Source: a virus (taxonomy: Duplodnaviria; Caudoviricetes). From it: a stretch of DNA of 40,931 bases. Made by a program: the position numbers and the translations under genes. The stretch covers positions 1-40,931 of IMG/VR virus record IMGVR_UViG_3300020313_000003. One strand, written 5' to 3'. The notes beneath the pieces were generated by a model. It saw only the letters and a list, made by a program, of their open reading frames with translations, had not been told where the DNA came from and did no database searches. Below, in pieces: positions 114 to 18,514 of the stretch (positions are counted from its first letter, which is position 1; every line of letters starts with the position of its first letter).

Positions 114-797
114 ATGGCCAGTTCCTCCACAGACATTGCCAACTATGCCCTGGCAAAATTAGGCTCCAAGCGCATCCAGGACATCAACGATTCCAACAGC
201 AAGGGCGCCAGGTTGGCCCTGCTCCACTACGACCAGGCCAGGAAATCCCTGCTCCGCCGGCATAGGTGGAACTTCGCCACCCTTCGAGCAGCTCTGACCC
301 AGGATGCTGACGCCCCTGCCTGGGGATACAAATACCAGTATGCTGTTCCTGCTGACTTTATCAGGCTGATGGTGGTCAATAACCAGGATGTGTGGGAGTC
401 CGGAAGGGCTGACTGGTTTGAGCTCGAGGGCTCCGATACCGGGCGCCGGATCCTGATCAATTCTGAGTCTGTCCGGATCAAGTATGTGGGAGACGTAAAC
501 AATACGAACCACTTCGATGACCTGTTTATCGAGGCGCTCTCGTTGTTCCTGGCGGCCAAGATGGCCAGGGCGATGACCGGGTCTGACCGGAAAGAACAGT
601 TGCTCCTGGAGGAGCTCGAGGGCACGGTGCTCCCGGACGCTATGCAGACCAATGCTTCAGAAGCTCACAGTGGAGAGAACCCGCCGGTGATAGACGCTAT
701 TCAAAACTCTTACCTGGTGAGAGCTCGAGGCAGCCGTCACGCCGATGAATGGCCCGAGGGGCCTGATGGAGGAACATATGGCCTTCCGACCGCATGA
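114..797 (+). CDS. Tail tubular protein A (T7 gp11-like adaptor)
   Basis: N-terminal 'DIANYALAKLG', 'LLRRHRWNFA', 'YQYAVPADFIR', 'FDDLFIEALSLFLAAKMA'; position after capsid genes. Confidence 0.85.
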   Translation: MASSSTDIANYALAKLGSKRIQDINDSNSKGARLALLHYDQARKSLLRRHRWNFATLRAALTQDADAPAWGYKYQYAVPADFIRLMVVNNQDVWESGRADWFELEGSDTGRRILINSESVRIKYVGDVNNTNHFDDLFIEALSLFLAAKMARAMTGSDRKEQLLLEELEGTVLPDAMQTNASEAHSGENPPVIDAIQNSYLVRARGSRHADEWPEGPDGGTYGLPTA

Positions 798-3163
798 TAG
801 TCAAATCCCTGGTATCGTTTAACGCTGGCGAATTCAGTCCCTGGTTGGATGCCAGGATAGACCTGGACAAGTATGGATCCGGCTGCCGGCGCCTGGAGAA
901 CTTTATCCTGACGCCCTACGGTGGATGCCGCCGGCGCCCAGGGACCGAGTTTGTGTCTGAGGTCACAACCTCGAGCGAGTCTGCCAGGCTAATTCCTTTC
1001 CGGTTTAACGTCAGCACCAGCTACGTCCTGATCCTGAACGGCGGGAAAATGCAGATAGCAAAGGGCGGGGCGACTCCATCCCTGGTAAAAAGCGGGGACA
1101 CTCCGGTGGAAGTGCTCGATGAACTTGGGCAGTCTTCTATCCCCTGGTCCGAGTCTCAGCTTCGCCAGGTAGCGTATGCCCAGATCAATGATGTAATGTA
1201 TTTGGTGCATCCGGAGGTTTCTCCCAGGAAGCTGGTGAGATCCTCCGAAACATCCTGGTCTCTGACTGAGGTGGACTTCGACTTCCCGCTATACCGGGAC
1301 GAGAACAAGTCGGACATCACTGTCAACCCAAGCGGCACGACTGGCAACATCACCCTAACCGCCTCTGCTGATTTATTCAGCGAGGACATGGTGGGCTCCA
1401 AGATGCAGATAGGGCACGACCGGGCGGCCACCGGATGGGAAGTCAAAATATCTCTGCATGATGATGATGCTACTAGCCCCAACCTTCTTTTGGATTCCGA
1501 CTATCAGCTCACAACAAATGGCACCTGGGATGGAACGGTGAAGCTGCAAAAAAGCCCTGGTGTGGGCGCCGGTTCCTTCACAGATGTCAGGTCGTGGGTG
1601 GGGGCCAACGACCGCAACATAATTTATTCCGGCAAGGAAATAGACGGCATTCATGAATATCGACTATTCTTTGACCACTCCTCCGATGGAGCCAATTCTC
1701 CTAACGCAATCCTGGAGGCCGTGGACCGCACTCTTTACGGGGAAGTAAAAATAACAGGCTACACCAGCCCCACCGAGGTGGCAGCCACTGTGATAAAGCC
1801 CCTGGCTTCTAGTGATGCGACAAAGCGGTGGAGTGAAGGTGCCATGAGCGAAAAGCGCGGCTACCCGGCTGCAATCACCTTCCATGAGAACCGCCTGGTC
1901 CTGGGCGGAATACCAGGGGATCCTCACGCTATCTATGGATCGGTAACCAACGACTACGAAAACTTCGAGAAAGGAACCAACGACGACGAATCCTACCTGC
2001 ACCGGATCCTGTCCGGGGAGCACAACGCCATCCGATGGCTAGTGTCAGAACGGGTTCTCCTGGTAGGAACTGAGGCCGGCGAGTTTGTGATGTCCGGGAC
2101 CGGAGCTGGCGGCCAGGAATCTATGCTTACCCCTAGCAACGTGAAGGCCAGGCGCCATTCCAATTTTGGCAGCGCGGCTATCCAGGCGGTATTCATAAAT
2201 GATTCAGTCCTCTACGCCCAACGGTCAGCCAGGAAAATCCGGGAGTATGGATACGTTTTCGAGCGGGACCGTTACCAGGCAGCGGATATGACTCTCCTGG
2301 GAGAGCACATCACGGGCCTGGGCGTCCAGGAGATGACCTTCCAGGTGCAGCGGGATTCGATCTTGTGGACCATCGTGACCGGGGGAGAGCTTGTGGGGAT
2401 GACTTACGAGAAGGAGCAGAACGTCATGGGTTGGCATAGGCACACGACTCCTGGCGGAGAATTTGAAAGCGTGGCCTGTATTTACGGCGCCAACGAGGAA
2501 GACGAGGTGTGGACCATAGTAAAACGCACCATCGAGGGAACGGAGAAACGCTACATCGAGCGCCTCCGACCGGATCAATACCGAGCCCAACAAAACAAGG
2601 ACAAGGACAACTACTGGTATCTCGATTGCGCCAAGCGGGTGACCGCCGGCGCTACGGAACCAGACCTCACGCAAGTCACCGGCCTGGAGCACCTGGAAGG
2701 GCAGACCGTCAAAGTGATGGTAGACGGGGCCGAGCGAGAAACCAAAACAGTCCAGAGCGGGAGGGTTTCCCTGGCAAAGGGCGGCAGGACGGCCCTGGTG
2801 GGCCTGGCATACACTTCCAGGCTCGAACCCATGAAACTGGACACGCCGCAGCAGAACGGAGCCTCGAGGACCAGGGAGGGCAAGATATGGCGCCTGGGCT
2901 TCCTGGTATGGAACAGCATGGGTGGACATTACGGAGCCAACGCCGATGGGGAGATCAGCTCCGGAGACTACGACCAGATCGTCTACCGGCAAACGGATGC
3001 CCCGATGGACGCCAGCCCTGCCATTTTCGATGGGGAATTTGAGGTGGATTTCGACTCCGACTATGCCGAGTCGGTCACCGTGGGGATCCTGAATGACAGC
3101 GTCTACCCGATGGCGGTCCTGGCACTCTTCCCGAAACTGAAATATTACGGCGACCAGGACTGA
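794..3163 (+). CDS. Tail tubular protein B / nozzle (T7 gp12-like)
   Basis: 'SFNAGEFSP..ARIDL.KY..GC..LENF...PYGG..RRPGT' start, 'GYPAAITFHENRL', 'GWHRH'; 789 aa, follows tubular A. Confidence 0.9.
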   Translation: MIVKSLVSFNAGEFSPWLDARIDLDKYGSGCRRLENFILTPYGGCRRRPGTEFVSEVTTSSESARLIPFRFNVSTSYVLILNGGKMQIAKGGATPSLVKSGDTPVEVLDELGQSSIPWSESQLRQVAYAQINDVMYLVHPEVSPRKLVRSSETSWSLTEVDFDFPLYRDENKSDITVNPSGTTGNITLTASADLFSEDMVGSKMQIGHDRAATGWEVKISLHDDDATSPNLLLDSDYQLTTNGTWDGTVKLQKSPGVGAGSFTDVRSWVGANDRNIIYSGKEIDGIHEYRLFFDHSSDGANSPNAILEAVDRTLYGEVKITGYTSPTEVAATVIKPLASSDATKRWSEGAMSEKRGYPAAITFHENRLVLGGIPGDPHAIYGSVTNDYENFEKGTNDDESYLHRILSGEHNAIRWLVSERVLLVGTEAGEFVMSGTGAGGQESMLTPSNVKARRHSNFGSAAIQAVFINDSVLYAQRSARKIREYGYVFERDRYQAADMTLLGEHITGLGVQEMTFQVQRDSILWTIVTGGELVGMTYEKEQNVMGWHRHTTPGGEFESVACIYGANEEDEVWTIVKRTIEGTEKRYIERLRPDQYRAQQNKDKDNYWYLDCAKRVTAGATEPDLTQVTGLEHLEGQTVKVMVDGAERETKTVQSGRVSLAKGGRTALVGLAYTSRLEPMKLDTPQQNGASRTREGKIWRLGFLVWNSMGGHYGANADGEISSGDYDQIVYRQTDAPMDASPAIFDGEFEVDFDSDYAESVTVGILNDSVYPMAVLALFPKLKYYGDQD

Positions 3164-3595: not shown

Positions 3596-4090
3596 ATGGG
3601 ATTACCAATGATTGCAGCGATAGCCAGCCTGGCCGGAACCGGAATATCAGCCTACGGGCAGATCCAGGCTGGCAAGGCCGCCAAGGAGGCAGGCAAAGCG
3701 GCCCAGGCAAACGCCGCAGCGGCCAACAAACAAGCAGCCGATGAAAGCCGGGAGCGGATGTCCAGGATGAGGGCTATGCACCAGCAAAAGATGGGGCGTC
3801 TGCGAGCCTCTGGGGGGAAATCGGGGATTGATATTGGCAGCGGATCCTTTGAAGACCTGCTCGAGGAATCGTCCCAGAGGATGGAGCTTTCGGTTTATGA
3901 CGAGCACTACCGAAACACGATGGATATGAGGCGCCGGCAATACAAGGGAGACCTGGCCGCCTGGGAAGGCCGACAACAGCAAACATCCCAGACCCTTCGA
4001 GGGTTCGGAACTTTGCTTACGGGCGTTGGGAGAACCGCCCACCAGTTGCACCAGGCAGGAATGACAGGAATGAGCTCCGGAACCGCATAG
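3596..4090 (+). CDS. Internal virion (ejection) protein, gp14-like
   Basis: Ala/Gly-rich hydrophobic N-terminus 'AAIASLAGTGISAYGQIQAG', 'SGIDIGSGS', helical; synteny. Confidence 0.7.
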   Translation: MGLPMIAAIASLAGTGISAYGQIQAGKAAKEAGKAAQANAAAANKQAADESRERMSRMRAMHQQKMGRLRASGGKSGIDIGSGSFEDLLEESSQRMELSVYDEHYRNTMDMRRRQYKGDLAAWEGRQQQTSQTLRGFGTLLTGVGRTAHQLHQAGMTGMSSGTA

Positions 4091-6004: not shown

Positions 6005-9000
6005 ATGTCCAGCCCTTTCATGATGGCCCAAGCAGCCGCTGGCCAAGAAGAAGAAGAAGAAGCATCCTGGGCTCCCAAGCGAACAGGACTTCCTGGGCTT
6101 TTGCTTGGAGATGATCGAGAATTTGCCGAAGAGCTCAAAAAGCGAGGATTGCTAGAAGATTACCAGGGGCTTCTGGGTTTATTTGGCGGATCTCCTGCTC
6201 TTGGAGATGACCCCTTGTGGCTCAAGAAAAAATACCAGGAGAAAGCGGCTTTCCAGGAGATTTCTCCAAACCTTCCTACAGAAGTGGCCGCCGCCGGCTA
6301 CGCGGCAATGAACAACCTGGACGCGGACGACCTTTCTGGGCGGATAGCCGCTTTGACCAAGGAAGCCCAGAAGCTAGACACCGAAGATAAGATTTTCAGC
6401 AAAGCCCTGACTGACGCATCCCTGGCGTTTTTAGCAGGGAGCCCCCAGGACGTTGAAAAGATCAAGGAGCTCCAGGGCAGAGCCACAACAGAGTTCGAAA
6501 AGCCTTTTGCCACCAGGGGATGGAAGTATGGCAGGGAAAGAGCAGCCGGGTATTTTACCGGGGAGATCCCGGCCAGGGCTCGCCAGGCAGTAGGGCTCCT
6601 TCGCCTGGCTATGGGCGAGACTACCGAGAATTTGCCCTGGGACATTCCCGAAGAAGCCAAGGGCCTGGACGATGTCATGGAAGACCTGGCGTCCTGGGCC
6701 ATTAACCAATCGGAAGACGACCTCAACAAATGGCAACAGGCCGTCAAGATGCTTGCCGAGTCTGAGCTGGTAGGGGCAGTAGAGCCTGGATTCTGGGGCA
6801 GAGCCAACCAGATACTGAACCAACCCCTAGCCAAATCAGCCTCCGCAATAGGAGCTGCAAACGTCCAGTTTCAGTCAAAGATCGCAGAGGGCCTGGAATT
6901 GATGACCGGCGACCTGGTGAAAAAACTACCAGGGTGGGCGACCTCCGAAAGCCTCCAAAAAGGAGCCGACTGGTGGTCATTCCGGCAACGGATGTGGAAC
7001 TTCCTGGACCAGGACATCGCGCCCTGGGTCGATATGGAAGAAGCCGGGATAGTGAAAAAGGGCCTTTATGCCGCTTACGAGTCCGCTCCTTTTTTCGCAA
7101 TGGCTGCCCTGGGAGGGCCAATGGGCCTGGCAAGTGGCGGCATGATGGAGGCCGGCATGGTAGACCTGGAGCTGCGACAGCGATACGGAGATGACATCGA
7201 CCCGGCAGCCAGGAACGCAATCGCCCTGGGAACTGGCGCAATCAACGCCGCCCTGGAGAGATGGGCCTGGAAAGGAACAGCCTGGGCCGGACGCTCCGCC
7301 GGGAAAAACTTGATCAACCCGGTTTACCAGGCACTAAGGGCAAAGAATATGCGAGCGGCCTTAACCAGGGCCGGCGTAAAGGGCGTAGCAGCCAGGGCCA
7401 CCAGGGGATTTGGCGCCCTGGCAGGAGCCACCGCTATCGAGTTTGCAGAAGAAAGCGTCCAGGATTTAACCAGCGCAGCCCTGTCAGAGGTGGCAAACGT
7501 AGTAGTGCCAGACCTGATGCCAGAGCATTCCTGGCGCGAACACATAAAAGAATGGAACAACCATCATGGCGTCAGGCTGTTTGCCGTCTTGCCTTACGCT
7601 ATCCTGGGCGCCGGCGGTCGCGCATATGTCCAGCGCAGCAACATAGATGAGTTGCGCGGAATGCTGAGTGACACGGAAGGGCTCCGGGAGTCGGGAGTAT
7701 TTACCAGCGAAGAGGAGCTCAAAGAGTTTGCCGAGGAGGCCAAGTCCGACCCGGTGGTGGCGGCAGATAACTTCCAGGAACGATACGAAGAAGGCACCGG
7801 AGAGACCAGGAACGCCAACCGGGACAACCTGACGAACTCCCAGGCAAGAGCCCAGGCAGAAGAAACCGGTGAAATCATCGTAAACCAACAAGCCACCGAA
7901 GGCTACCAGGTGATCATCCCTGGGCAGGAATCAATCCATGCCAACACCATAGTCGAGGCCCAGGAGGTAGCAGCCCTGGCCCAACTGGCCAAAGATGCTG
8001 GAACGCTTTCAAAACTCCCCGACCTGATCAAGCAGCACCAGGAAGCCAAGGTTGCCAAAGAGCCAGACGACTTGGAGACAGCCACCAATCGTGTAGAGGC
8101 GGAACGGACAGAGGCAATAGAGGAACAAGCCGAAGCCGAAAAAGCCCGGCGCCCAATGACAGTAGTCGATGTGCTAACCGGTGAAGAACGGATCGCCAAG
8201 CCAAACGAAGTCACCGAGGAGCGCAAAAAAGCCTGGGAGGCCGAGCACGGACTACCCTTTGTGGGAGACGTTGCCATCCTTGGCGCCACCGAAATAGGAC
8301 TGGCCCCTGGCCCCAACCTTCCCCACGTTCGAGGAGGGAAAGCAGGAGTGGCACACGCGGTCATTAAATTATACCGAGGCGCCAGCCCGGTCACGTTTAC
8401 CGAGGAACAGGCGGAAGGCTTCTTGAGGGTCTCCCTGAAGAATGGTGATATAGAGCTCGAGGATGCCCGTCAGCGGCTCGCAGCCCTGGGCAGGGATCTT
8501 GGAATGGACTTTGCCCTGGATACCACGGAGGGCGTCATAGAGTCGTTTTCAGAACTGGCGGTCGCATACGTTTCTGGCTCCCTTACCCCGGAAGACCTCC
8601 AGCGTTTACCAGGGAAGTTTGCTAACTGGCTGCGAAAGTTTGCCGAGTTCCTGGCAAATAGCCTCCGCATGGTCCGGGGCCTGAGAGAATACAGGGAGAT
8701 GGGAGAACTCGACTCCACCCTGGAAGGTTGGGTGCGTGAAGCAGTCGGCCTGAATCCTCTCCAGGCAATGGAAGAAACAGTCGAGGAGCAGGTAGAGCAG
8801 CTCGAGGAGGACAGCGCCGCCCAGGAAACTCCGTTCCAGGGATACACCCTGGACGAAATCATAATCCCTGACGATGTCCGGGAGGCTATCGCTGAAATGG
8901 CCCAGGCGGCTGACGAGCGGTTTATGGCGTCAGATGAAATCATCATGGCGCAGTCTGAGGAAGAGGCTCAAGCGTTTGCCGCAAGCGCCTACGACATGGA

Positions 9001-12000
9001 AAGAGCAGCCCTGGATGAGCAAATAGCCTGGGAGCGGCAATACTACTCAGAGCCTACGGCTGAAGAGATCCAGGAATTTTATGATGAACAGCGAGCAGAC
9101 GCCGCTTTCTATGAGCAAGGGCGGAGAAGGGAGCAGCTTGAAGCAGAGCTTGGGGGTTTAACCAGTTGGAAAGACAGCCAATTTTACGATGCGTTTATTG
9201 GCCCTGGCGCCAGCTATGTGCTGTCGAAAAACCGAGCCAAAACGCTAGGCAAATGGGATCCAAAGTATGGGCCACATGGCGAGTGGGACAGCCAGCCACA
9301 AGGCGTCAAAAGAATCAAGGGAGGGAAAACGGTAAAGGGTAAAAAGAAAGTAGCTCACGCGGCATCAGAGGTTCCACAGTATTACTTCAAAGACTTGTGG
9401 GCGCCAAAAGGCACTCCCGCCGATCAGCTTTATTTCCCGTCTGACCTGGGCCACCTGGCCTACAACCAGTCAGATCAACTAGGAAACCGCCAACCTATCG
9501 AAGGCACTACAAGCCCAGACGCCGCAGGATTTTGGGCAGCGTTTGTATATGCGGTCGATCAAGACCAAAGAAGGATTGAAATTGAAAACGAACTGGAAGA
9601 GATGGAACGGGAAGCCGGCCTGGAAAAGGTCTCTCCTACATTCTCTATTGCCCCGAAGGGGGCTGGCCTCGAGGAGATCCGCGCCAACGCCGATAAACAA
9701 GCAGAGCAAGAGCACCAGGAAAGAATCCTTCCGGAAACTCCGTTTGGCGACCAACCATACAACCGTGTAGCCGAATACTATGATATCGAAACCCACGACC
9801 CGGCGAGGCGTTCCTGGAGGCCGGCGGGTATAGGTTATGCGGGTTATCAGTATACTCGTCATGATTTTGCCGGACAAGCAATCGACCCAAATTCTGTTGG
9901 GGGCTATGCTTTCATGCCCAGGCGCCATGAGTATTTCGTGAAGCTCCAGGAGCAATTTGAGAAAGAAGCGCCGGTCAGGGATGATCGAGTTGCCCAAAAG
10001 ATTGGAGGCCAGTGGGTGTTTCCTCCTAATAAAATCACACACGAAGATTACGAGGAGTGGTTTCAGCAAAAGATAAGAGATGGAGAAGTGCCTATCCTAC
10101 GAACTGTTCCATTCAAGTTTACCTCCCTGGCCGACTCTCTCCAGGCTATGGGCGGCGTCATGACTCGAGCCGAAGCAAAAAGGGCCGGCCTGACCCAGGC
10201 ACAGCTTGACCGCGAATACGGCAACGTCATCCCGGTAGACCAGATCCCCCCTCACTTGCGGTCTATTATTTTCGGGGAAGCCCGGTTTGCGGAAAGCCTG
10301 GCAAGCGAAGCGACCGATAAGAGAGCCCTGGAAAGCAGAGGAACCTCCACGCGAGCTAAAACAAAACGCCTTCCAAGTGAAATTGCGGCGGAACTAAGCA
10401 ATCCCGAGTCACCGTTTTTTCCCAGGAACAAGGTCATCCCAGAGCTCCTGGGCCGCATAGAAAAAAACATGGCATACGTCTGGAAAGATAGAGGGGTTAA
10501 CCAGGAGCAGGAATTAGATATCCGCGCCAGGCGAGACAACAACACCCAGGACAAGCCCGAAACATACGACCCCATTTTTGAAAAAGCCGTTGACCAGTGG
10601 GGGGAGAAAACAGAGACGCCTGGGGCATACGAGTTCTGGGATGCGATTCGATACCGGATGCCGGAAGCGTTTATAGCGTTTCCCAGGTCGCCCAAAGCGC
10701 GACCAAAAGACAAAGGCGGCCCCAGGAGCGACTTCAGATACGAGCCGCTCTATGGCAAAACGTCACAAGCCCAGACTGAGCAGGGAGAGCTGACGTTCAG
10801 TATAGCGCCGTCCAGGATGACTCCAGGCGACAGCACCAGGGTAATCGTTACCCAGGAGCAAACCCTGGTAGGACCAGCAACCTTTGCCATCGCCGGTTAT
10901 CACGGGACGCGCCACAAAATCCCCAAGTTTGAAATGGACAAAGTGGGCCAAGGAATTGGCGCCCAGGTATGGGGATACGGCCTGTATTTTGGAGGAGCTC
11001 GAGACATTGGAGAAGACTACGCCCAGATGATGGCGAACCAGCATTCTCCCTACGCGGTGTCTTTTCGCAAAGGCCAGGAGATCCCTACCGTTCCTCCTTC
11101 TCCATTGCTTCCAGACAACACTTATGACGTTGGCCCCAACTGGTTTGTCAAAGACACCAGGACAGACGAACGGGTCACCGACTACATGACAGTCGATGAG
11201 GCTGACGAAGCCTTTGACCGCCTGAGCCTGGAGGCGATGAATCAATACAAGGTCGAGCTGGATGTGGAGCCTGAGCAGTTACTCTTTGCCGACACCCCGT
11301 TTTCTCAGCAGAGCGAGTTTGTCCAGGAGACCCTTCGCAAGATTATCCCGGCCTGGACCCGATTTCTTCCAGAAGGCCAAGGCATAGTAGTGGACGGCTC
11401 TACCTGGGAAGACCGCTCGCACGTTTACCCGTTTGACGACGAGCACGTTAAAACGCTGCTCCAACTCACTTACGACGAGGAGATGGACAGTTACAAAATG
11501 CCAGACGGGACGTATGTAAACATTACCCAATGGGCGCAAAGCAAAGGCATGATAGCCAGGAAGGTTTCCGAGGCTTTACTAAGCGCCGGCATCAAAGGGA
11601 TTGCCTACGAGGAAGGGACTGCTGCAAGAGCCCTGGACAGAGCAATGATGCGCCGGCGCAAATCAATGCGAAGCGGCCAGGGGCATCCTCTCTATGATCC
11701 AGGAGCCGCAGAAAGGTGGCAGGATCTCCCGGACGCCCAGAGCTACGTCATTTTTGATGAAAACGACATCAAGATCTTGGAGGAGAATGGCAAACCAATC
11801 GCCCTGGAAAACCACCAGGTGACGTATGCTGTAGCGCCCAGGCACACGCCACCGCCAGGAGCCGAGGTCAACCAGGTGGAGTTGAAGAAGAAAGGCAAGC
11901 CCACCAAGATCGGGCCGCTTCCGACCTGGACCGTTCCAAAAGACACCAAGCAGTCCCTGGGCAAAAAGATCCTGGCAGCAAACCACGCAAAAGACGGGAT

Positions 12001-15000
12001 CCCTGGCAAAGCCCTATTTGATCGGCTGGACTTAGCCAGGGAAATGGTGGCCGATGACCCTGGGCGCCTGGCCAGCCCAACCGGGTGGATGGAAACCATG
12101 CAAGCAGCCGGCGTGTGGGGAAACATCCTGGTCCCCCCAGGGCTGATGAAAACGATAGTAGAGCGCCCTGGGCAATACGTCGGGCTCCTCGAGGGGGGCT
12201 ATCACGAAAACCAGACAAAGCCTGGAGTTTACCAGGCAGCCAGGGACGGACTCAACTGGACCAAGAAGATGGGCCGGGAGCTTAACAAGACTGGCGCCGT
12301 CCCCGAATGGAATACGGTCCTGCACCATTTCTGGGGACTGCTATCCCGCCGAGCCACACCAGTCCAGCAGGAAGCCATGTGGCTCCGGATGCTTACGCAC
12401 CGGCCTATCCTGGACTCAATCCAGAGAAGCATCAACGGGACATTTTCCGCCTGGGCAGTAGAGCAATTCAAGACAAACAGAAAAGAGCTGCTAAAGAAAA
12501 CCAGGCAAATGCGAACCAATGACAAGGGAAAGGTTCGGCCCTTAGACGAAAGGGATGCCTGGATCGCCCTGGTAATTGACGCCAGGGAAGCCACGGCAGA
12601 TGGGTCAGCTTTACCAGGCGGCGCTCCTATGGGCAACAATGTCACCAGCAACGCCAATGACTTTTTTGCCATGCTTACATTCTGGGATGGCAGATGGGGC
12701 GAGGTTTCCGATGTCTACTGGACCAACGATTCTATAGAGATGGGGCGCCGGTTCCACTCCCTGGGCGATGATGCGGTAGGGATCCAGAACAAGGTTCAAA
12801 GGTTCGTTGGCCTTACTTACGGAATTCCTGGGCTGATCATGGACCGGTGGAAGTTTGTGGAATTCTGGCTGCCCGACCTGATGAAGGAAATGCGGGTGAG
12901 GAAGCCCAAGAACTTCTTCAAATATGGGAAGACCGAGGCGTCCAGGGCAACCCCTGAAGATCCTTCCAGCCTGTATGGGTTCTATTCTCTGATCGAAAGC
13001 CAAAGCCCGGTATTCTCCCTGGCGTTTTACGAGATGATGGAGACTGGCCTGGAGGTGGCCATCGACAACAGCCCCGAGCTCAAGAGATTCCTGGGGCCGA
13101 ATGCAAACGTGGGCGGCTTGCACTGGCACGGGTGGAACGCGATCAAGAACGAGGCAGTGGGGCACTCGAGCCTGGACCTTTCACTTGATCTTCTCAAGAA
13201 CTACGGGTTAAAGTCCAACGCTGCCGCCGTCGAGAAGACGATCAAGGCCGGCAACTACTACACCGAAACCCAGAAGGCAGATGGCACAGTCGAACGATTC
13301 ACAATCTCCAAGGGAGTCCCAAGCGCCACCCGTCAGGAGCGGGTTCCCGATGGACCCAGAGACCGAGCCCTGGGAAGACGCCGCGATGCAAAAGGCCCAG
13401 GACGCGGCAATAGAAAAGATCAGGAAACTTTCGCCATAGGCCCGGTCTTTGCCTCTGGCCTTTCCAAGGGGCCGACAGATATTCGAGAGGCGATCAAGCA
13501 AGGCAAGCCGGTAGGCATTGCAGCTACCTATGGTATCCCTCTTCCTGGCCCAGGAGGAGTAACTGAAACCGGGAAGCCGGCGTTTCAGCGAGAGCCGTCT
13601 GACACAATTAGGACTCTCCTCCGCGATTACCTGAACAAGGGCGGCCAGGTGTTTATTGATTCCGGCGCGTTTACCGACTTCCGAGCGGGACGCATGACTG
13701 ACTTTGTAGGAGTTTTCCAAACCTACGAACGCTTCTCCGAAGGGGTAGACCCTGGCAACCTGGAGAACCTCTATGTGGTGGCTCCCGATGTGATTGGGAA
13801 CCCAGGAGAAACAGAGCTGTTGCAAATGGACTTTATCAAAGAGTCTGCTGCGCTTGCCGACAAAGGCGCCCAAATCATTGTTCCTGTCCAAACAGGCCAG
13901 GGCTCCCTGGTTGAAACTGTCCTTCGCTCTTTTTCCTCTCTGCAAGAATATTGGCCATCAAAGGAATGGTGGAGCGCCCCTATTGTAGGGGTGGCATACG
14001 AGGAGAAATCCTGGGGCAAAGAAGAGGTTGTCGATTTTATCAAGGCTTATGAAGGGATCGGCGTTGACGAAGATACCCATGCTGACTTGCACGAAATTTT
14101 CAGCGCCCCTCCCACTATCCATCTCCTGGGCGGAGGCAGCGCAAAGGTCCAGGACATCGAGGACACGGTAGGAGGGACTGAAGTCACTATCCAGGGAGAC
14201 TCTCTATTCAAGGGAGCTTCCCGCCGTAAGAGCACCAGGGCCAAGCGCCCCGAGCAGGGCGAGCTCAGTTTCGCCATAGTCCCGGCGGAAATGGTAGAGG
14301 CCCACCGCCAGGCAGAAGCAAACATGGACGAAGAGGAAGGCCAGCGCCTGGTTGACGAGGCTGCTGCCATGTCCCCGTTCACAATGCCAGTCTGGCACGG
14401 GAGCGGAATGCACTCTTTTGAAGGCCCCCCGTCTCACCCAGGTGCGTCAAAACAACGGGGGGACGCCCCTTCCGGGTGGAATCTAAGCCCATCGGCCAAA
14501 GGAGAGTTTTCCGACGATAGGCGCTTTTTCCGAATGAGGCAAATGGAGACAGGTCGTGCAGGGGCCATCTACTTTACTATGGATCCTCGCCACCATGCTT
14601 TTTCCAGGGCTTTTGGGGATGTCCGCAAATACTTTATCAACCCAGGGAGAGTGGCCGATTTAACCAGGGAAACCAACTCCCCGGAATTCCAGCAACTGCT
14701 TGAAAACTACAACAAGCACTACGAAAAGGCCGGCTTTCAAATTGCACCTCGACCAGAGGAGAAAGGGTTCGTGGGTTACACCAAGGAAAACGCTCCCCCA
14801 AGTTGGGAACTGTTTGATGATCTCGAAGCTGGTGCCGCTGACTTTTTGATGAACGGAGACTATGATGCGTTTATCCTGGAAGAACGACTTGCTGGTAAAC
14901 TTCCGCCATCGCTATGGGAAAATAGAGGGATCACGGACACAATTAAGTCTATCGCCATCCTGGATCCCTCGAGGGTAAAATCCGGAGAGCCTTTTACCTA

Positions 15001-18000
15001 CGAGTGGGAACCAAACAACCCGATGGAGACAAAGACCCTGGTCCCCCTGGACGAGCGGTTTGATCCCAATATCCCTGACGTTTCCTACGCTATCAGCCCG
15101 GCGGAAGGGTTCGACCCTCTCCTCGAGGCGATCACCGACAAGATCAACGACTCCGCTGAAGGAGTAGTCGAGTTCCTGGAAAAGATCCGGGACCGGGTTG
15201 CAGAGATCAAAGCCCAATACGAAAGCGACCGGGCGTCCATTCTGGTGTCAGAGTCTTACGACGAAGGAGGAGCAGAGATTGATTTCGAGGGAGGAGTCAA
15301 AACTGGAGACCTGGACCTGCGAGCGGCCCTGGCTTACCTGGGCGCGATCCAGAAGGTGCTCCCCAGGGAGATCCAGGGATTTGTGGGCACGGCGCAAAGG
15401 CTGGCAGATTTCAAAACTATGGACGCAATGTCCAAGGAGCTTGCCAGGAGAATCCCCAGGATCGAAGCCGCATTAGAAAACTACCTGGCCAGGAGCCACC
15501 GAAAGTCGATCCGCAAGATCCTCAAGAAAGGTGCTGCAAAAGTAAGCAACTCGAGGAAGGCCACTGGTAAAATCGGGCCAGCCGGCCATGCGATTTTCAA
15601 GGAAGCCAGGCTGGCAATGAGATTGCAGCTCACAGAAGATGAGAAGCGAGCCGACCGGACCCTCCAGGAGAAAGGCGAAGAGATGGCCCAGAGTCTCCTG
15701 GACCAGATCGAAGACAATGACAGCCTGGACCTGGACGAAGTGGATGAGCTGGATGGCAGAGCCGCCGCCTGGTTGTTGTTCACGGACTTCCAGAATGCCA
15801 ACTCCGAGCGCCTACGCAAAGGGCTGGACTTGTTATCGGACACCTACAGCGAAGGCCGGGAGAAGTGGTTGCGAGTCCTGGGCGCCAGGAAGGCTCAACG
15901 AGAAGCCAGGCTCCAGGCCATCGAAAAGCTGATAAAAGACAAGACCAGGGCTGGACGCGCTGCTTCGATCAGGGCTGATGAACACGCTCTCAAACGGATC
16001 AGCGAAGGATTCATGTCCGCGTTTACTTCCGGATCACAGATGGTTCGGCGCCTGGGCGAGACGACCAACGATGAAGATATCAAGGCGATGCTGGAGGAAA
16101 TGGAGGAAGCCCTGGCAGCCGCTGAAGACCAGGAGACTGACCTGGACTACCAGGACAACGAAGCGTTTGCCGAGGCGCTTTACCGAATCCTGGGCGTGAA
16201 ATACGAGCACCAGTTATCTCGCAAAATCAAAAAGCATTCGACCGCGCCTGACAGCGAAGTTCCTGTGACCTCCCTCGAGGGAAGAAAGACCAGGAAGTAT
16301 TCTATTTCCAAGCTCGAGGCGGAGAGAATTGCCAACGGGGAAGCAACAGGATTTACCGGGAAAGGCGAATGGATAGAGCTGACCCTGGGGATGCGCCACG
16401 CAATCGAGGAAGCCTGGGAAAACTTTGAGGAACTGACCGAGGAAGAGCAATCCGGGAAGCGGGTGCTGAAATTTGAGGTAGTCGAAGCGACCGGCAGCAG
16501 AAAAAGCCTGGGCCTCCGGACTGATCTCGAGCTGCTAAACCTATGGCTAACCATGCGCCAGCCTGACCAGGCAGAGAAGTTGCATCGCCTGGGATATGAC
16601 CAAACAACCCAGAGAGAGCTCGAGGCTTATTTACCAGCAGAGGTGATCGCCCTGGGAGAATGGATGGCCGAATATCTGCGCCAGGACCAGGAGACTATTG
16701 ACCGATTGCACCGGGCGGAAAAAGGAATAGGCATGAACCTGGTCGAGAACTATTGGCCAGTCCGGAATGATGTTAGCGGCCAGGACTACGACGACCTGCA
16801 ACTGGACGGGAACCAGAAACAGTCTGGGCGCTCTGTCAGCTTCACTATGCAGCGGGTGACCAACAACGCGGAACCCGCTATCGCTGACGCCCTGGGAGTT
16901 TTCCTGGCTCACCGGTCTCAGGTGAATTTTTACAAAGCCCATGTTGCAACTCTTCGAGAGTGGGGCGGCCTGGTCAGACACGAAAGATTTTCCAACGCCG
17001 TCAGGCGCTCCCTGGGCGACACCTTCTACGGTGCCCTCTCTCACAGAATGGAGCGGATCCAAAACGGAGGGGTGATGAAAGCTGGCCGTGCCCTGCTCTT
17101 TGATCGCCTGGTAAAGGGACTGAAAAAGCGAACCTCCCTGGGGATCCTGGGCTGGCGCTTGTCCACTATCATGGTGAACTTTACCGCCGCTCTGAACTCC
17201 TTCCTGGAAATACCCGCCAGAGAGCTCCTAAAAGGGCTCCTGCTGGCTTCCAAGAGGCCGGGCGCATGGAAGGAAGCCTGGAACTCTCCAGGCATCCGGA
17301 GACGCCTGAGAGACGGCGCAACGTATGAAGCCCAGATTGCCAAGGCCAGGGGACCGCAACGCCGCCCAATCATTAGCCAACTCGAGAAGACCGCCGAAAA
17401 GGGAATCACTCCCATCAACTACGCTGATGTGGGCGCCAATATGCTAGGCGCAGTGGCCGTCTATGAATACACCAGGACAAAGTCCCTGGAAGCCGGCGCT
17501 ACAGAAGAACAAGCAAAACAGGAGGGAGAAAAGGCAGTGGACCGGCTCATGGCAAGAGCAGCTCAACCCGCCCAGCGTTTTACCAGGAGTGAGATGGAAC
17601 ACCGAGCCCTGGAGAACCCATTGGCCGCCTTGTTTGCTTTGTTTGTATCGGAGCCCAGAAAGAACCTTTCCGTGGCCATCCTATCCGCCAGGCAACTTGC
17701 CACCGGCAAAGGGATCTACGATTCCAAGGCAATGGCGGCCCAGGCATTTGCCACATCATCCTTTTTCCTACTCGCCCTGGAGCACATAATCCGACTGTCC
17801 TACCAGGCAGTCTTCAGAGCAGATGAGGACGATGAAGAAAAAGTCCTGGACCGCGTGATAGAAAAGCTGACTGACGGCAAAGCCTGGGCGCATCGCCTTG
17901 CTGCAAATCATGCAGCGGGGATCCCTATTTATGGGCCGGCTTACGAATGGGTAGTGGGCAGTTTGGTCAACTCATCTGCCATTCCTGGGGAGGACGTTTA

Positions 18001-18514
18001 CCAGTTTACCAATACGGAAAACCCCGCTGTTCGAGCAGTCGAAAAGCTAGGGCGCGGAACCAAAAAATTTATCGACGCCCAGGACGAAGACAGCAAAGAA
18101 GAATCCCTGGATGCTACGATAGATATGATCCAGGCCGGGGGCAACCTGATCCCTGGTGGGCCGCTGTTTGCCCAGCTTGCCAATGTCGGGGAAGCCACCC
18201 TGGGCTTTACCAGCTCCAATCTCACGGACGAAGGACGCCGTGCCAGGTTCAAAGGACGATTCAACAAATACAAAAAATCCCTGACAGAACTCCTGGGGCC
18301 GACGACCAACAAGGAAACAGGGGAAACCGACAAGGACATCCAGCAGCAAAAATGGGACGCCCAGACAGCTTACCTGCTCGAGGCCCTGGCTCCCCTGGAA
18401 ACTGACCAGATCATCGAGCTCACCCAGGAACTGTCTATTTCCAAGGCCGTGCGGGAGGAGATCGAGTTCGGGCTTCTAAATGGCCTGGATACAACTACAA
18501 TAGAAGACGAGTGA
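6005..18514 (+). CDS. Giant internal virion / polyvalent protein (4169 aa) with degenerate zincin, two ADP-ribosyltransferase-like, HhH-like and TGT/DpdA-like domains
   Basis: Occupies the gp16 position before the tail fibre; motifs YHGT..GYGLYF, WHGS..AIYFT, FIDSGAF..PDVIG..IHLLG, GIQNKVQRF..IMDRW; repeated linker motif. Confidence 0.8.
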   Translation: MSSPFMMAQAAAGQEEEEEASWAPKRTGLPGLLLGDDREFAEELKKRGLLEDYQGLLGLFGGSPALGDDPLWLKKKYQEKAAFQEISPNLPTEVAAAGYAAMNNLDADDLSGRIAALTKEAQKLDTEDKIFSKALTDASLAFLAGSPQDVEKIKELQGRATTEFEKPFATRGWKYGRERAAGYFTGEIPARARQAVGLLRLAMGETTENLPWDIPEEAKGLDDVMEDLASWAINQSEDDLNKWQQAVKMLAESELVGAVEPGFWGRANQILNQPLAKSASAIGAANVQFQSKIAEGLELMTGDLVKKLPGWATSESLQKGADWWSFRQRMWNFLDQDIAPWVDMEEAGIVKKGLYAAYESAPFFAMAALGGPMGLASGGMMEAGMVDLELRQRYGDDIDPAARNAIALGTGAINAALERWAWKGTAWAGRSAGKNLINPVYQALRAKNMRAALTRAGVKGVAARATRGFGALAGATAIEFAEESVQDLTSAALSEVANVVVPDLMPEHSWREHIKEWNNHHGVRLFAVLPYAILGAGGRAYVQRSNIDELRGMLSDTEGLRESGVFTSEEELKEFAEEAKSDPVVAADNFQERYEEGTGETRNANRDNLTNSQARAQAEETGEIIVNQQATEGYQVIIPGQESIHANTIVEAQEVAALAQLAKDAGTLSKLPDLIKQHQEAKVAKEPDDLETATNRVEAERTEAIEEQAEAEKARRPMTVVDVLTGEERIAKPNEVTEERKKAWEAEHGLPFVGDVAILGATEIGLAPGPNLPHVRGGKAGVAHAVIKLYRGASPVTFTEEQAEGFLRVSLKNGDIELEDARQRLAALGRDLGMDFALDTTEGVIESFSELAVAYVSGSLTPEDLQRLPGKFANWLRKFAEFLANSLRMVRGLREYREMGELDSTLEGWVREAVGLNPLQAMEETVEEQVEQLEEDSAAQETPFQGYTLDEIIIPDDVREAIAEMAQAADERFMASDEIIMAQSEEEAQAFAASAYDMERAALDEQIAWERQYYSEPTAEEIQEFYDEQRADAAFYEQGRRREQLEAELGGLTSWKDSQFYDAFIGPGASYVLSKNRAKTLGKWDPKYGPHGEWDSQPQGVKRIKGGKTVKGKKKVAHAASEVPQYYFKDLWAPKGTPADQLYFPSDLGHLAYNQSDQLGNRQPIEGTTSPDAAGFWAAFVYAVDQDQRRIEIENELEEMEREAGLEKVSPTFSIAPKGAGLEEIRANADKQAEQEHQERILPETPFGDQPYNRVAEYYDIETHDPARRSWRPAGIGYAGYQYTRHDFAGQAIDPNSVGGYAFMPRRHEYFVKLQEQFEKEAPVRDDRVAQKIGGQWVFPPNKITHEDYEEWFQQKIRDGEVPILRTVPFKFTSLADSLQAMGGVMTRAEAKRAGLTQAQLDREYGNVIPVDQIPPHLRSIIFGEARFAESLASEATDKRALESRGTSTRAKTKRLPSEIAAELSNPESPFFPRNKVIPELLGRIEKNMAYVWKDRGVNQEQELDIRARRDNNTQDKPETYDPIFEKAVDQWGEKTETPGAYEFWDAIRYRMPEAFIAFPRSPKARPKDKGGPRSDFRYEPLYGKTSQAQTEQGELTFSIAPSRMTPGDSTRVIVTQEQTLVGPATFAIAGYHGTRHKIPKFEMDKVGQGIGAQVWGYGLYFGGARDIGEDYAQMMANQHSPYAVSFRKGQEIPTVPPSPLLPDNTYDVGPNWFVKDTRTDERVTDYMTVDEADEAFDRLSLEAMNQYKVELDVEPEQLLFADTPFSQQSEFVQETLRKIIPAWTRFLPEGQGIVVDGSTWEDRSHVYPFDDEHVKTLLQLTYDEEMDSYKMPDGTYVNITQWAQSKGMIARKVSEALLSAGIKGIAYEEGTAARALDRAMMRRRKSMRSGQGHPLYDPGAAERWQDLPDAQSYVIFDENDIKILEENGKPIALENHQVTYAVAPRHTPPPGAEVNQVELKKKGKPTKIGPLPTWTVPKDTKQSLGKKILAANHAKDGIPGKALFDRLDLAREMVADDPGRLASPTGWMETMQAAGVWGNILVPPGLMKTIVERPGQYVGLLEGGYHENQTKPGVYQAARDGLNWTKKMGRELNKTGAVPEWNTVLHHFWGLLSRRATPVQQEAMWLRMLTHRPILDSIQRSINGTFSAWAVEQFKTNRKELLKKTRQMRTNDKGKVRPLDERDAWIALVIDAREATADGSALPGGAPMGNNVTSNANDFFAMLTFWDGRWGEVSDVYWTNDSIEMGRRFHSLGDDAVGIQNKVQRFVGLTYGIPGLIMDRWKFVEFWLPDLMKEMRVRKPKNFFKYGKTEASRATPEDPSSLYGFYSLIESQSPVFSLAFYEMMETGLEVAIDNSPELKRFLGPNANVGGLHWHGWNAIKNEAVGHSSLDLSLDLLKNYGLKSNAAAVEKTIKAGNYYTETQKADGTVERFTISKGVPSATRQERVPDGPRDRALGRRRDAKGPGRGNRKDQETFAIGPVFASGLSKGPTDIREAIKQGKPVGIAATYGIPLPGPGGVTETGKPAFQREPSDTIRTLLRDYLNKGGQVFIDSGAFTDFRAGRMTDFVGVFQTYERFSEGVDPGNLENLYVVAPDVIGNPGETELLQMDFIKESAALADKGAQIIVPVQTGQGSLVETVLRSFSSLQEYWPSKEWWSAPIVGVAYEEKSWGKEEVVDFIKAYEGIGVDEDTHADLHEIFSAPPTIHLLGGGSAKVQDIEDTVGGTEVTIQGDSLFKGASRRKSTRAKRPEQGELSFAIVPAEMVEAHRQAEANMDEEEGQRLVDEAAAMSPFTMPVWHGSGMHSFEGPPSHPGASKQRGDAPSGWNLSPSAKGEFSDDRRFFRMRQMETGRAGAIYFTMDPRHHAFSRAFGDVRKYFINPGRVADLTRETNSPEFQQLLENYNKHYEKAGFQIAPRPEEKGFVGYTKENAPPSWELFDDLEAGAADFLMNGDYDAFILEERLAGKLPPSLWENRGITDTIKSIAILDPSRVKSGEPFTYEWEPNNPMETKTLVPLDERFDPNIPDVSYAISPAEGFDPLLEAITDKINDSAEGVVEFLEKIRDRVAEIKAQYESDRASILVSESYDEGGAEIDFEGGVKTGDLDLRAALAYLGAIQKVLPREIQGFVGTAQRLADFKTMDAMSKELARRIPRIEAALENYLARSHRKSIRKILKKGAAKVSNSRKATGKIGPAGHAIFKEARLAMRLQLTEDEKRADRTLQEKGEEMAQSLLDQIEDNDSLDLDEVDELDGRAAAWLLFTDFQNANSERLRKGLDLLSDTYSEGREKWLRVLGARKAQREARLQAIEKLIKDKTRAGRAASIRADEHALKRISEGFMSAFTSGSQMVRRLGETTNDEDIKAMLEEMEEALAAAEDQETDLDYQDNEAFAEALYRILGVKYEHQLSRKIKKHSTAPDSEVPVTSLEGRKTRKYSISKLEAERIANGEATGFTGKGEWIELTLGMRHAIEEAWENFEELTEEEQSGKRVLKFEVVEATGSRKSLGLRTDLELLNLWLTMRQPDQAEKLHRLGYDQTTQRELEAYLPAEVIALGEWMAEYLRQDQETIDRLHRAEKGIGMNLVENYWPVRNDVSGQDYDDLQLDGNQKQSGRSVSFTMQRVTNNAEPAIADALGVFLAHRSQVNFYKAHVATLREWGGLVRHERFSNAVRRSLGDTFYGALSHRMERIQNGGVMKAGRALLFDRLVKGLKKRTSLGILGWRLSTIMVNFTAALNSFLEIPARELLKGLLLASKRPGAWKEAWNSPGIRRRLRDGATYEAQIAKARGPQRRPIISQLEKTAEKGITPINYADVGANMLGAVAVYEYTRTKSLEAGATEEQAKQEGEKAVDRLMARAAQPAQRFTRSEMEHRALENPLAALFALFVSEPRKNLSVAILSARQLATGKGIYDSKAMAAQAFATSSFFLLALEHIIRLSYQAVFRADEDDEEKVLDRVIEKLTDGKAWAHRLAANHAAGIPIYGPAYEWVVGSLVNSSAIPGEDVYQFTNTENPAVRAVEKLGRGTKKFIDAQDEDSKEESLDATIDMIQAGGNLIPGGPLFAQLANVGEATLGFTSSNLTDEGRRARFKGRFNKYKKSLTELLGPTTNKETGETDKDIQQQKWDAQTAYLLEALAPLETDQIIELTQELSISKAVREEIEFGLLNGLDTTTIEDE

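Follow-up and report, generated by a model that had tools for sequence, protein, structure and literature searches.

The window, by which we mean the whole stretch of 40,931 bases analysed here, is a complete phage genome with direct terminal repeats (100% complete), and a giant open reading frame (ORF) within it holds a domain built like tRNA-guanine transglycosylase (TGT) and DpdA. The gene order is podovirus-like, running from tail tube genes at 114-3163 through a gp14-like gene, a 635-aa gene and the giant ORF to a tail fibre gene. Since the giant ORF follows the gp14-like gene and precedes the tail fibre gene, it lies at the position of gp16 in the T7 gene order (Table 1). This synteny makes its product likely to be a virion component that is ejected with the genome, and its C-terminal scaffold has a weak match (E 7e-6) in Tenacibaculum phage Gundel_1, to a protein of 2482 aa annotated as 'structural protein'. 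An earlier, sequence-only reading of the window had described a TGT/DpdA-like base-exchange domain embedded in a virion protein at 13445..14266. The embedding is borne out for a giant protein at a T7 gp16-like position, which synteny places in the virion as a probable component. The ordered TGT-type motifs it had listed are all in frame in ORF 6005-18514 where it put them, namely VFIDSGAF (13649-13672), APDVIGN (13781-13801), IIVPVQ (13874-13891), IHLLG (14117-14131), and GDS (14195-14203), although the last is not terminal as claimed, given that D252 sits 22 residues before the end of that interval.

The TGT-like domain is an exact exchangeable cassette between F-x-I-x-P linkers. Six linkers of the F/Y-x-I/V-x-P type divide the giant protein (aa 1213, 1598, 1941, 2476, 2756, and 3028), and the two that bound the domain are the junctions of a swap seen in a sister protein, P0153. 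In the sister the modules at the N-terminus, upstream, and at the C-terminus share 95-98% identity with the window protein; it is identical through F-A-I-G-P, continues with a 193-aa ART-PolyVal-like cassette (PF18760 E 7e-6, under the cut-off), and rejoins at the next linker. None of the nine scaffold relatives P0153-P0161 has the TGT-like domain; they carry ART-PolyVal, RadC, LPD23, and MuF_C, with LPD1/LPD5 according to precomputed Pfam annotation. Within the window protein's own cluster the cassette is kept in all ten proteins that span the region, P0004 included, and in P0163 and P0174 its middle part is replaced with all motifs intact. An assembly chimera can be rejected, as both cassette junctions are spanned by contigs from X6, X11, and X12 (three runs, three studies); a contig from X16 covers part of the domain only. 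The linkers could be recombination points or protease sites. Q-G-E-L-x-F precedes two of the six, and the Q-x-x-L-x-F before the right linker resembles a sliding-clamp-binding motif.

Table 1. Coordinates of the giant gene, its cassettes and linkers, and a context marker in the window
Feature	Positions	Strand	Basis or remark
TGT/DpdA-like TIM-barrel cassette, aa 2481-2755	13445..14269	+	AF2 model, fold searches, HHalign, conservation
Key residues of the cassette	D72 13658, D115 13787, Q149 13889, H226 14120, D252 14198	+	Motif alignment
Linker F-A-I-G-P, at which the swap has its exact left junction	13430..13444	+	Comparison with sister protein P0153
Right linker F-A-I-V-P, right swap junction	14270..14284	+	Preceded by Q-x-x-L-x-F motif
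F/Y-x-I/V-x-P linkers, six	starts 9641, 10796, 11825, 13430, 14270, 15086	+	Two are the exact swap junctions
Giant polyvalent protein of 4169 aa, probably an internal virion or ejection protein	6005..18514	+	Synteny, T7 gp16-like position
ART-PolyVal-like cassette 1, aa 1598-1940, YHGT motif	10796..11824	+	PF18760 E 5.6e-4, below cut-off; common to other giants
Upstream module, aa 1941-2475, core 12257-13204 (aa 2085-2400); probable HhH base-excision glycosylase fold (weak)	11825..13429	+	Conserved family
Probable ART-like cassette 2, aa 2761-3027, WHGS motif (by eye)	14285..15085	+	Likeness to end of P0153 cassette
gp14-like internal virion protein, context marker	3596..4090	+	phrog_418 E 4e-15; PF24072 E 0.007

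The giant protein joins unrelated enzymatic domains in one polypeptide and shuffles them among relatives, as polyvalent proteins do; phage P1 DarB and its kind are giant multi-enzyme virion cargo (Iyer 2017, PMC5512222). Relatives carry LPD38, LPD1/5/23, ART-PolyVal, SNF2-methylase, RadC, and MuF_C, again like polyvalent proteins. The main text of Iyer 2017 makes no mention of TGT, queuosine, deazaguanine, or a TIM barrel and devotes no section to them, and searches of the open-access literature turned up no account of a TGT/DpdA domain inside a virion or polyvalent protein; in the excerpts used, PMC7824862, PMC12839542, and bioRxiv 2025.10.29.685425 mention DpdA/TGT only in other contexts.

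Fold and active site of the cassette

An AlphaFold2 (AF2) model from an 88-row alignment is a beta/alpha TIM barrel (predicted local distance difference test, pLDDT, 88.6; predicted template modelling score, pTM, 0.87), which is the (beta/alpha)8 barrel of the TGT/DpdA superfamily. In VIA comparisons the model matched archaeal TGT at Z 11.8 (root mean square deviation, rmsd, 3.5; 192 aligned), DpdA 7ui4 at Z 11.7 (3.5; 188), and bacterial TGT at 11.4. Methionine-synthase and GH5 barrels tie with these (Z 11.4 and 11.3), and with non-TGT barrels within 1 Z unit the fold alone does not single out TGT. Foldseek returned TGT as its best PDB match (E 4.4e-4), and on BFVD its best match was an ART-PolyVal-like polyvalent phage protein (E 6e-12), with phage DpdA-like entries next. 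The tie among folds is broken because the sequence profile of the domain's family matches DpdA: HHalign scored it at 96.9% (E 1.4e-10) against a DpdA1 alignment and at 94.5% against 9g DpdA alone, in a match that covers only the N-terminal 94 columns, and at only 3% against E. coli TGT. No TGT/DpdA match emerged when the domain or the family profile was searched directly against Pfam, PHROGs, and PDB sequences, so the link needs comparison of profiles or of structures. By these routes the fold that had been proposed from the motifs holds.

So does the proposed alignment of catalytic aspartates. D72, D115, and D252 are collinear with the acid/base, base-reading, and nucleophilic aspartates of TGT/DpdA, in that order, D252 being placed by multiple alignment and by eye on its motif rather than by residue-level superposition. 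Five motifs are collinear in the alignment with DpdA1-type proteins, although E. coli TGT is in part wrongly aligned there. Against DpdA, whose active-site roles are taken from Gedara 2023 (PMC10164549), the correspondences are D72 to D95, D115 to D130, Q149 to H181, F76 to F99, L228 to L236, and D252 to D256. H226 has its counterpart in the nucleophile-supporting histidine of Cap10 (bioRxiv 2025.04.06.647259).

With TGTs among the top structural matches, the domain might act on host tRNA and alter translation by removing queuosine from position 34 or blocking it there. We regard this as very improbable, for the sequence is nearer DpdA than TGT, the genomic context is DNA-centred, and the cassette ends about 23 residues after D252, without the C-terminal zinc-binding part of bacterial (E. 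coli) and archaeal TGT. The cassette has no cysteine, and none of 88 family members matches PF01702. Cap10 invites another thought. Cap10-CdnD (PDB 9ntn) belongs to the group of best-matching folds that tie (Z 10.9, rmsd 3.6, 198 aligned), and Cap10, a host defence protein of type IV CBASS (cyclic-oligonucleotide-based antiphage signaling system) that binds a tagged CD-NTase and is encoded with QueC-like Cap9, shares the TGT fold and retains the same D/S/D and H/D residues (bioRxiv 2025.04.06.647259). A reader or decoy of this type could bind or strip the deazaguanine tag that immune proteins of type IV CBASS and QatABCD carry, and disarm them at entry; it would need no free base, and the window copy is acidic. 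However, the closest sequence relatives are DpdA1 proteins (Cap10 was compared by structure and residues), the neighbours of family members are mostly DNA-modifying, and a Cap10-type operon does not appear, with no QueC in the genome and no CD-NTase among the scanned ORFs. Such a role is quite unlikely.

A large family outside the named DpdA groups

The family profile, a hidden Markov model (HMM) of the domain and two stand-alone relatives at ~35% identity, finds 926 representatives at E<=0.001 and 545 at E<=1e-10. Chance can be rejected as the source of the motif order, since the HMM finds so many representatives and the conserved columns are these very motifs. Among the best 150 of the 926 together with the query, 43 proteins are 1000-7001 aa long and 94 have <=450 aa, some of which may be fragments. 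D72, G74, and D115 are invariant in all 151 unfiltered rows, which is the valid count because retention of D72 and H226 in the filtered set is circular; H226, G229, and D252 are present in 43/43 of the large proteins (>=1000 aa), as are D72 and D115. The tree and the pocket comparison left out 11 of the 151 rows (P0004 and rows without two motifs), and on the 140-row tree the label fused or stand-alone changes 15 times against a shuffled mean of 36 and minimum of 29, so the two forms cluster and yet have interchanged repeatedly. A viral scan brought up at least 73 loci, of which at least 72 are members (150-336 bits), 41 or more of them in ORFs of >=1000 aa; L063, at 18.6 bits, was set aside as not belonging to the family. 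When bacterial genomes were scanned for the motifs, 21 of the 25 matches proved to be family members and four did not, and one family member has matches in 47 plasmid records. Copies also lie on plasmids of cultured Pseudomonas, among them pKF715B, whose stand-alone member WP_231995376 has the P-x-N motif. A word-based search of proteins of 481-2000 aa brought up no relatives, and neither did scanning viral contigs and annotated phages with a single sequence. Members are thus found inside giant polyvalent proteins, as separate genes of phages, and on plasmids. What the sequence-only reading overlooked is this large uncatalogued family with its stand-alone and plasmid-borne members, the swappable cassette, and the binding of deazaguanine-tagged proteins by a TGT fold in Cap10.

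Pfam does not recognize the family. PF23859, with its cut-off of 27 bits, is silent for the domain, in 46/46 carriers, and in DpdA1 controls, being an Orion-type family (Orion at 468 bits); the ESM Atlas offers one lead, a cluster with 17% PF23859 members. The family profile makes a single match per genome in five phages, at 14-28 bits: in 9g and RHEph04 to the gene annotated as DpdA, and in Rosebush, 7-11, and nt-1 to a DpdA-like ORF. It makes none in the genomes of Orion, HVTV-1, and phiST. DpdA1 genes reach 16-28 bits against 150-360 for members, and DpdA2, DpdA3, and DpdA4, with one representative genome each, show 14 bits (nt-1) or no match (phiST, HVTV-1). Collinear motifs with such low scores place the domain, on sequence, as DpdA-like in design and outside every named DpdA subfamily; Cui/Hutinet (bioRxiv 2023.04.13.536721) distinguish five, and treat 7-deazaguanine marks as post-replication modifications.

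The comparison with characterized enzymes runs along the same line. Phage DpdA1 (Enterobacteria phage 9g gp03, RHEph04, Rosebush; PMC6884629) shares the order D-S-G-A-F, D-x-x-G-D/N, P-x-H/Q, H-x-F/L-G, and D-S, but is stand-alone beside folE/queD/queE/queC, whereas the window family is often fused, had no que genes found with it, and differs in the strand-6 motif. Singleton DpdA enzymes (Salmonella 7-11, Mycobacterium Orion PF23859) resemble the window in having no viral preQ0 pathway; 7-11 scores 19.6 bits on the family profile and Orion nothing, and neither is reported, in the excerpts used, as part of a virion protein. Bacterial DpdA from Salmonella Montevideo (7ui4, PMC10164549) has the same fold and inferred active-site set, but is a 413-aa protein in a defence island that needs DpdB and ATP, and no DpdB partner was seen in the window.

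Base supply and the reaction proposed

Our leading reading, which we hold tentatively and a little short of an even chance, is that the cassette replaces part of the guanines of the phage's own DNA with host preQ0/preQ1 and thereby blunts restriction. The giant protein would be packaged and then ejected with the genome. D252 would attack the glycosidic carbon to form a covalent intermediate, following the chemistry of Gedara 2023 (PMC10164549), with D72 as acid/base, D115 and Q149 reading the base edge, and F76 and L228 sandwiching the base. DNA is the probable target, given DpdA1 as closest relatives and the DNA-acting neighbours and fusion partners; the host would be the source of the base, and the cassette one of several interchangeable counter-defence tools. 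Modification is expected to be sparse and motif-limited, made in cis at entry as for DarB or late, while the protein is made and packaged. Counted in favour are Q-x-x-L-(x)-F-type C-terminal tails, found in 11/93 short members against 13/1361 internal windows.

QueC, QueD, and FolE have no match in the window (QueE had no separate search), as the sequence-only reading had said of folE, queD, and queC. Across carriers, QueC was found in 0/39 fused carriers, the window included, and the 31 other carriers give one partial match (positions 132-200 of 210), against 4/4 DpdA1 controls; L009, L015, and L038 were left out of this search as duplicates. QueD and FolE were found in 0/46 carrier viruses (35 at >=90% completeness) against 4/4 DpdA1 controls. 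Full QueC is present in 20/21 bacterial genomes that hold the family, a weak indication since all are Proteobacteria by title; it allows host supply of the base and says no more. The earlier proposal of a DpdA working with host base thus keeps its fold, its catalytic residues, and its missing synthesis genes, though a lone DpdA is not unusual: Hutinet 2019 (PMC6884629) lists 76 DpdA-only phages, and host supply is proposed there for singleton enzymes such as those of 7-11 and Orion.

Several points weigh against this reading, beginning with the ones already given for the fold tie, the span of the HHalign match, and the placing of D252. The DpdA-only phages tested so far show little or no modification, with Orion DNA unmodified and 7-11 at 50 dADG (2'-deoxy-7-amido-7-deazaguanosine) per million (PMC6884629). 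The window copy has A184 and E186 where P stands in 40/43 and N in 39/43 fused members, and its net charge is -13, where the family has a median of -2. For many of the genes next to stand-alone copies, Pfam has no family. Finally, GTAC has 0 occurrences in the whole window, palindromic 6-mers are depleted (812 observed against 1219 expected), and CTAG and CGCG stand at about half of their expected frequency. The missing GTAC and the palindrome depletion show restriction pressure on the phage, which counts in favour of the reading, but the GTAC loss suggests that its DNA is not broadly shielded, which speaks against dense, genome-wide modification.

The same pocket departures (A184/E186, charge -13) could mark the window copy as a weakly active or idle passenger, and its dispensability in 9/9 scaffold relatives outside its own cluster and the unmodified DNA of Orion (PMC6884629) agree with that. 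Yet the catalytic motifs are all retained, even in P0163 and P0174 with their replaced middle, and the cassette is found in runs of several studies dated 2014-2025; we consider an idle copy improbable. A different base is about equally improbable. At strand 6, where TGT and DpdA1 have the motif G-G-L/M, family members have G/A-x-P-S/F-N and the window copy G-V-A-Y-E; no coupling to que genes is seen, and nucleoside-deoxyribosyltransferase-like neighbours occur in three viral loci, all of which would suit a DNA base exchange that inserts something other than preQ0/preQ1. The Watson-Crick-edge residues, however, suit guanine-like bases, and no conserved base-making gene was found beside the family. 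The neighbours in question lie close to stand-alone members (L048:9261-9653, L036:9260-9607, L055:1266-1880); they are genes for nucleoside 2-deoxyribosyltransferase or of the DUF4406/DUF7768 type, and possible base suppliers.

The domain may instead attack host DNA, excising guanine or host 7-deazaguanine marks to leave abasic sites or erase a Dpd-type self-mark, perhaps together with the adjoining module, which has a fold like that of helix-hairpin-helix (HhH) glycosylases. The absence of viral base supply (0/46 carriers) and the mixed attack and protection cargo of polyvalent proteins (PMC5512222) accord with this, but a domain that is stably carried by plasmids (47 records) and by 21 bacterial genomes fits poorly with damage to host DNA, the base-binding and exchange residues are all retained, and the HhH-like module is also found without the TGT-like domain. 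Host-DNA attack is therefore unlikely. The module itself is unannotated and highly conserved, with HhH-GPD-like motifs recognized by eye, and is present at 21 metagenome loci, its ORF being long wherever the contig leaves room. Its AF2 model (16 rows) is poor (pLDDT 59); HhH glycosylases and the queuine salvage enzyme DUF2419 fill the first 17 places in the VIA search (Z 4.7-6.2), and Foldseek found no match with this model. These results weakly suggest an HhH-type base-excision glycosylase. Obligate coupling to the TGT-like cassette was rejected, as the module occurs without the cassette in P0153 and, within 3 kb, in 20 metagenome ORFs.

Returning to base exchange in the phage's own DNA, it can be set in a wider proposal that we consider doubtful, though worth stating. 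Ejection proteins of podophages may be plug-and-play racks of nucleobase-editing cassettes, with base exchange at entry using host bases, possibly fed by the HhH-like glycosylase, no viral synthesis genes, and a subfamily of ~900 clusters common to phages and plasmids. If true, there would be a further large DpdA subfamily without synthesis genes, in injected proteins and on plasmids, and a new timing (entry) and carrier class for 7-deazaguanine chemistry, or a new use of the TGT fold. The role of lone DpdA genes becomes testable with compact 270-aa proteins, and the family may yield small DNA-labelling enzymes.

Genomic company and natural occurrence

Among 21 other large carriers scanned, 17 have a polyvalent hallmark and 12 an SNF2/Sno helicase or methylase, like proteins of the DarB type (PMC5512222). 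The named neighbours of stand-alone copies are mostly DNA-acting (C5/N6 methylases, Mom, ArdC, RadC, recombinases, beta clamp, DarA_C). At L105:9119-12160 (-) a Mom-family acyltransferase, ART-PolyVal, and the TGT-like domain are fused, with a DarB-like methylase-helicase nearby, and at L111:9069-10696 a Mom-family acyltransferase lies directly upstream of the domain. Fusions to a polyvalent InPase domain stand beside a DarA_C or DarB-like gene (L011:9266-11029, L047:4450-6687). Stand-alone members adjoin a PAPS-reductase-like (phosphoadenosine phosphosulfate) gene, a beta-clamp gene, or ArdC/RadC in mobile-element regions (L096:9371-11135, L102:6768-8918, L109). In the window, ART-like cassettes may flank the TGT-like region on either side, on weak sequence evidence: the second has no Pfam match, and over its last 52 residues it shares 44% identity with the final stretch of the P0153 ART-PolyVal-like cassette.

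The window recurs in marine metagenomes, with at least half of its words in 19/24 runs among the matches listed, from several studies dated 2014-2025. One RNA run holds 0.07 of its words, which is not evidence of expression. A host lead comes from P0164, a partial member of the window protein's cluster labelled as a Phycisphaerae metagenome-assembled genome, a label that may reflect binning contamination. Allelic patches occur inside the giant gene in natural populations: an X12 contig ends or is replaced at 13231-13405, and contigs from X6, X11, and X16 have loose ends or replaced stretches around 9180-11660.

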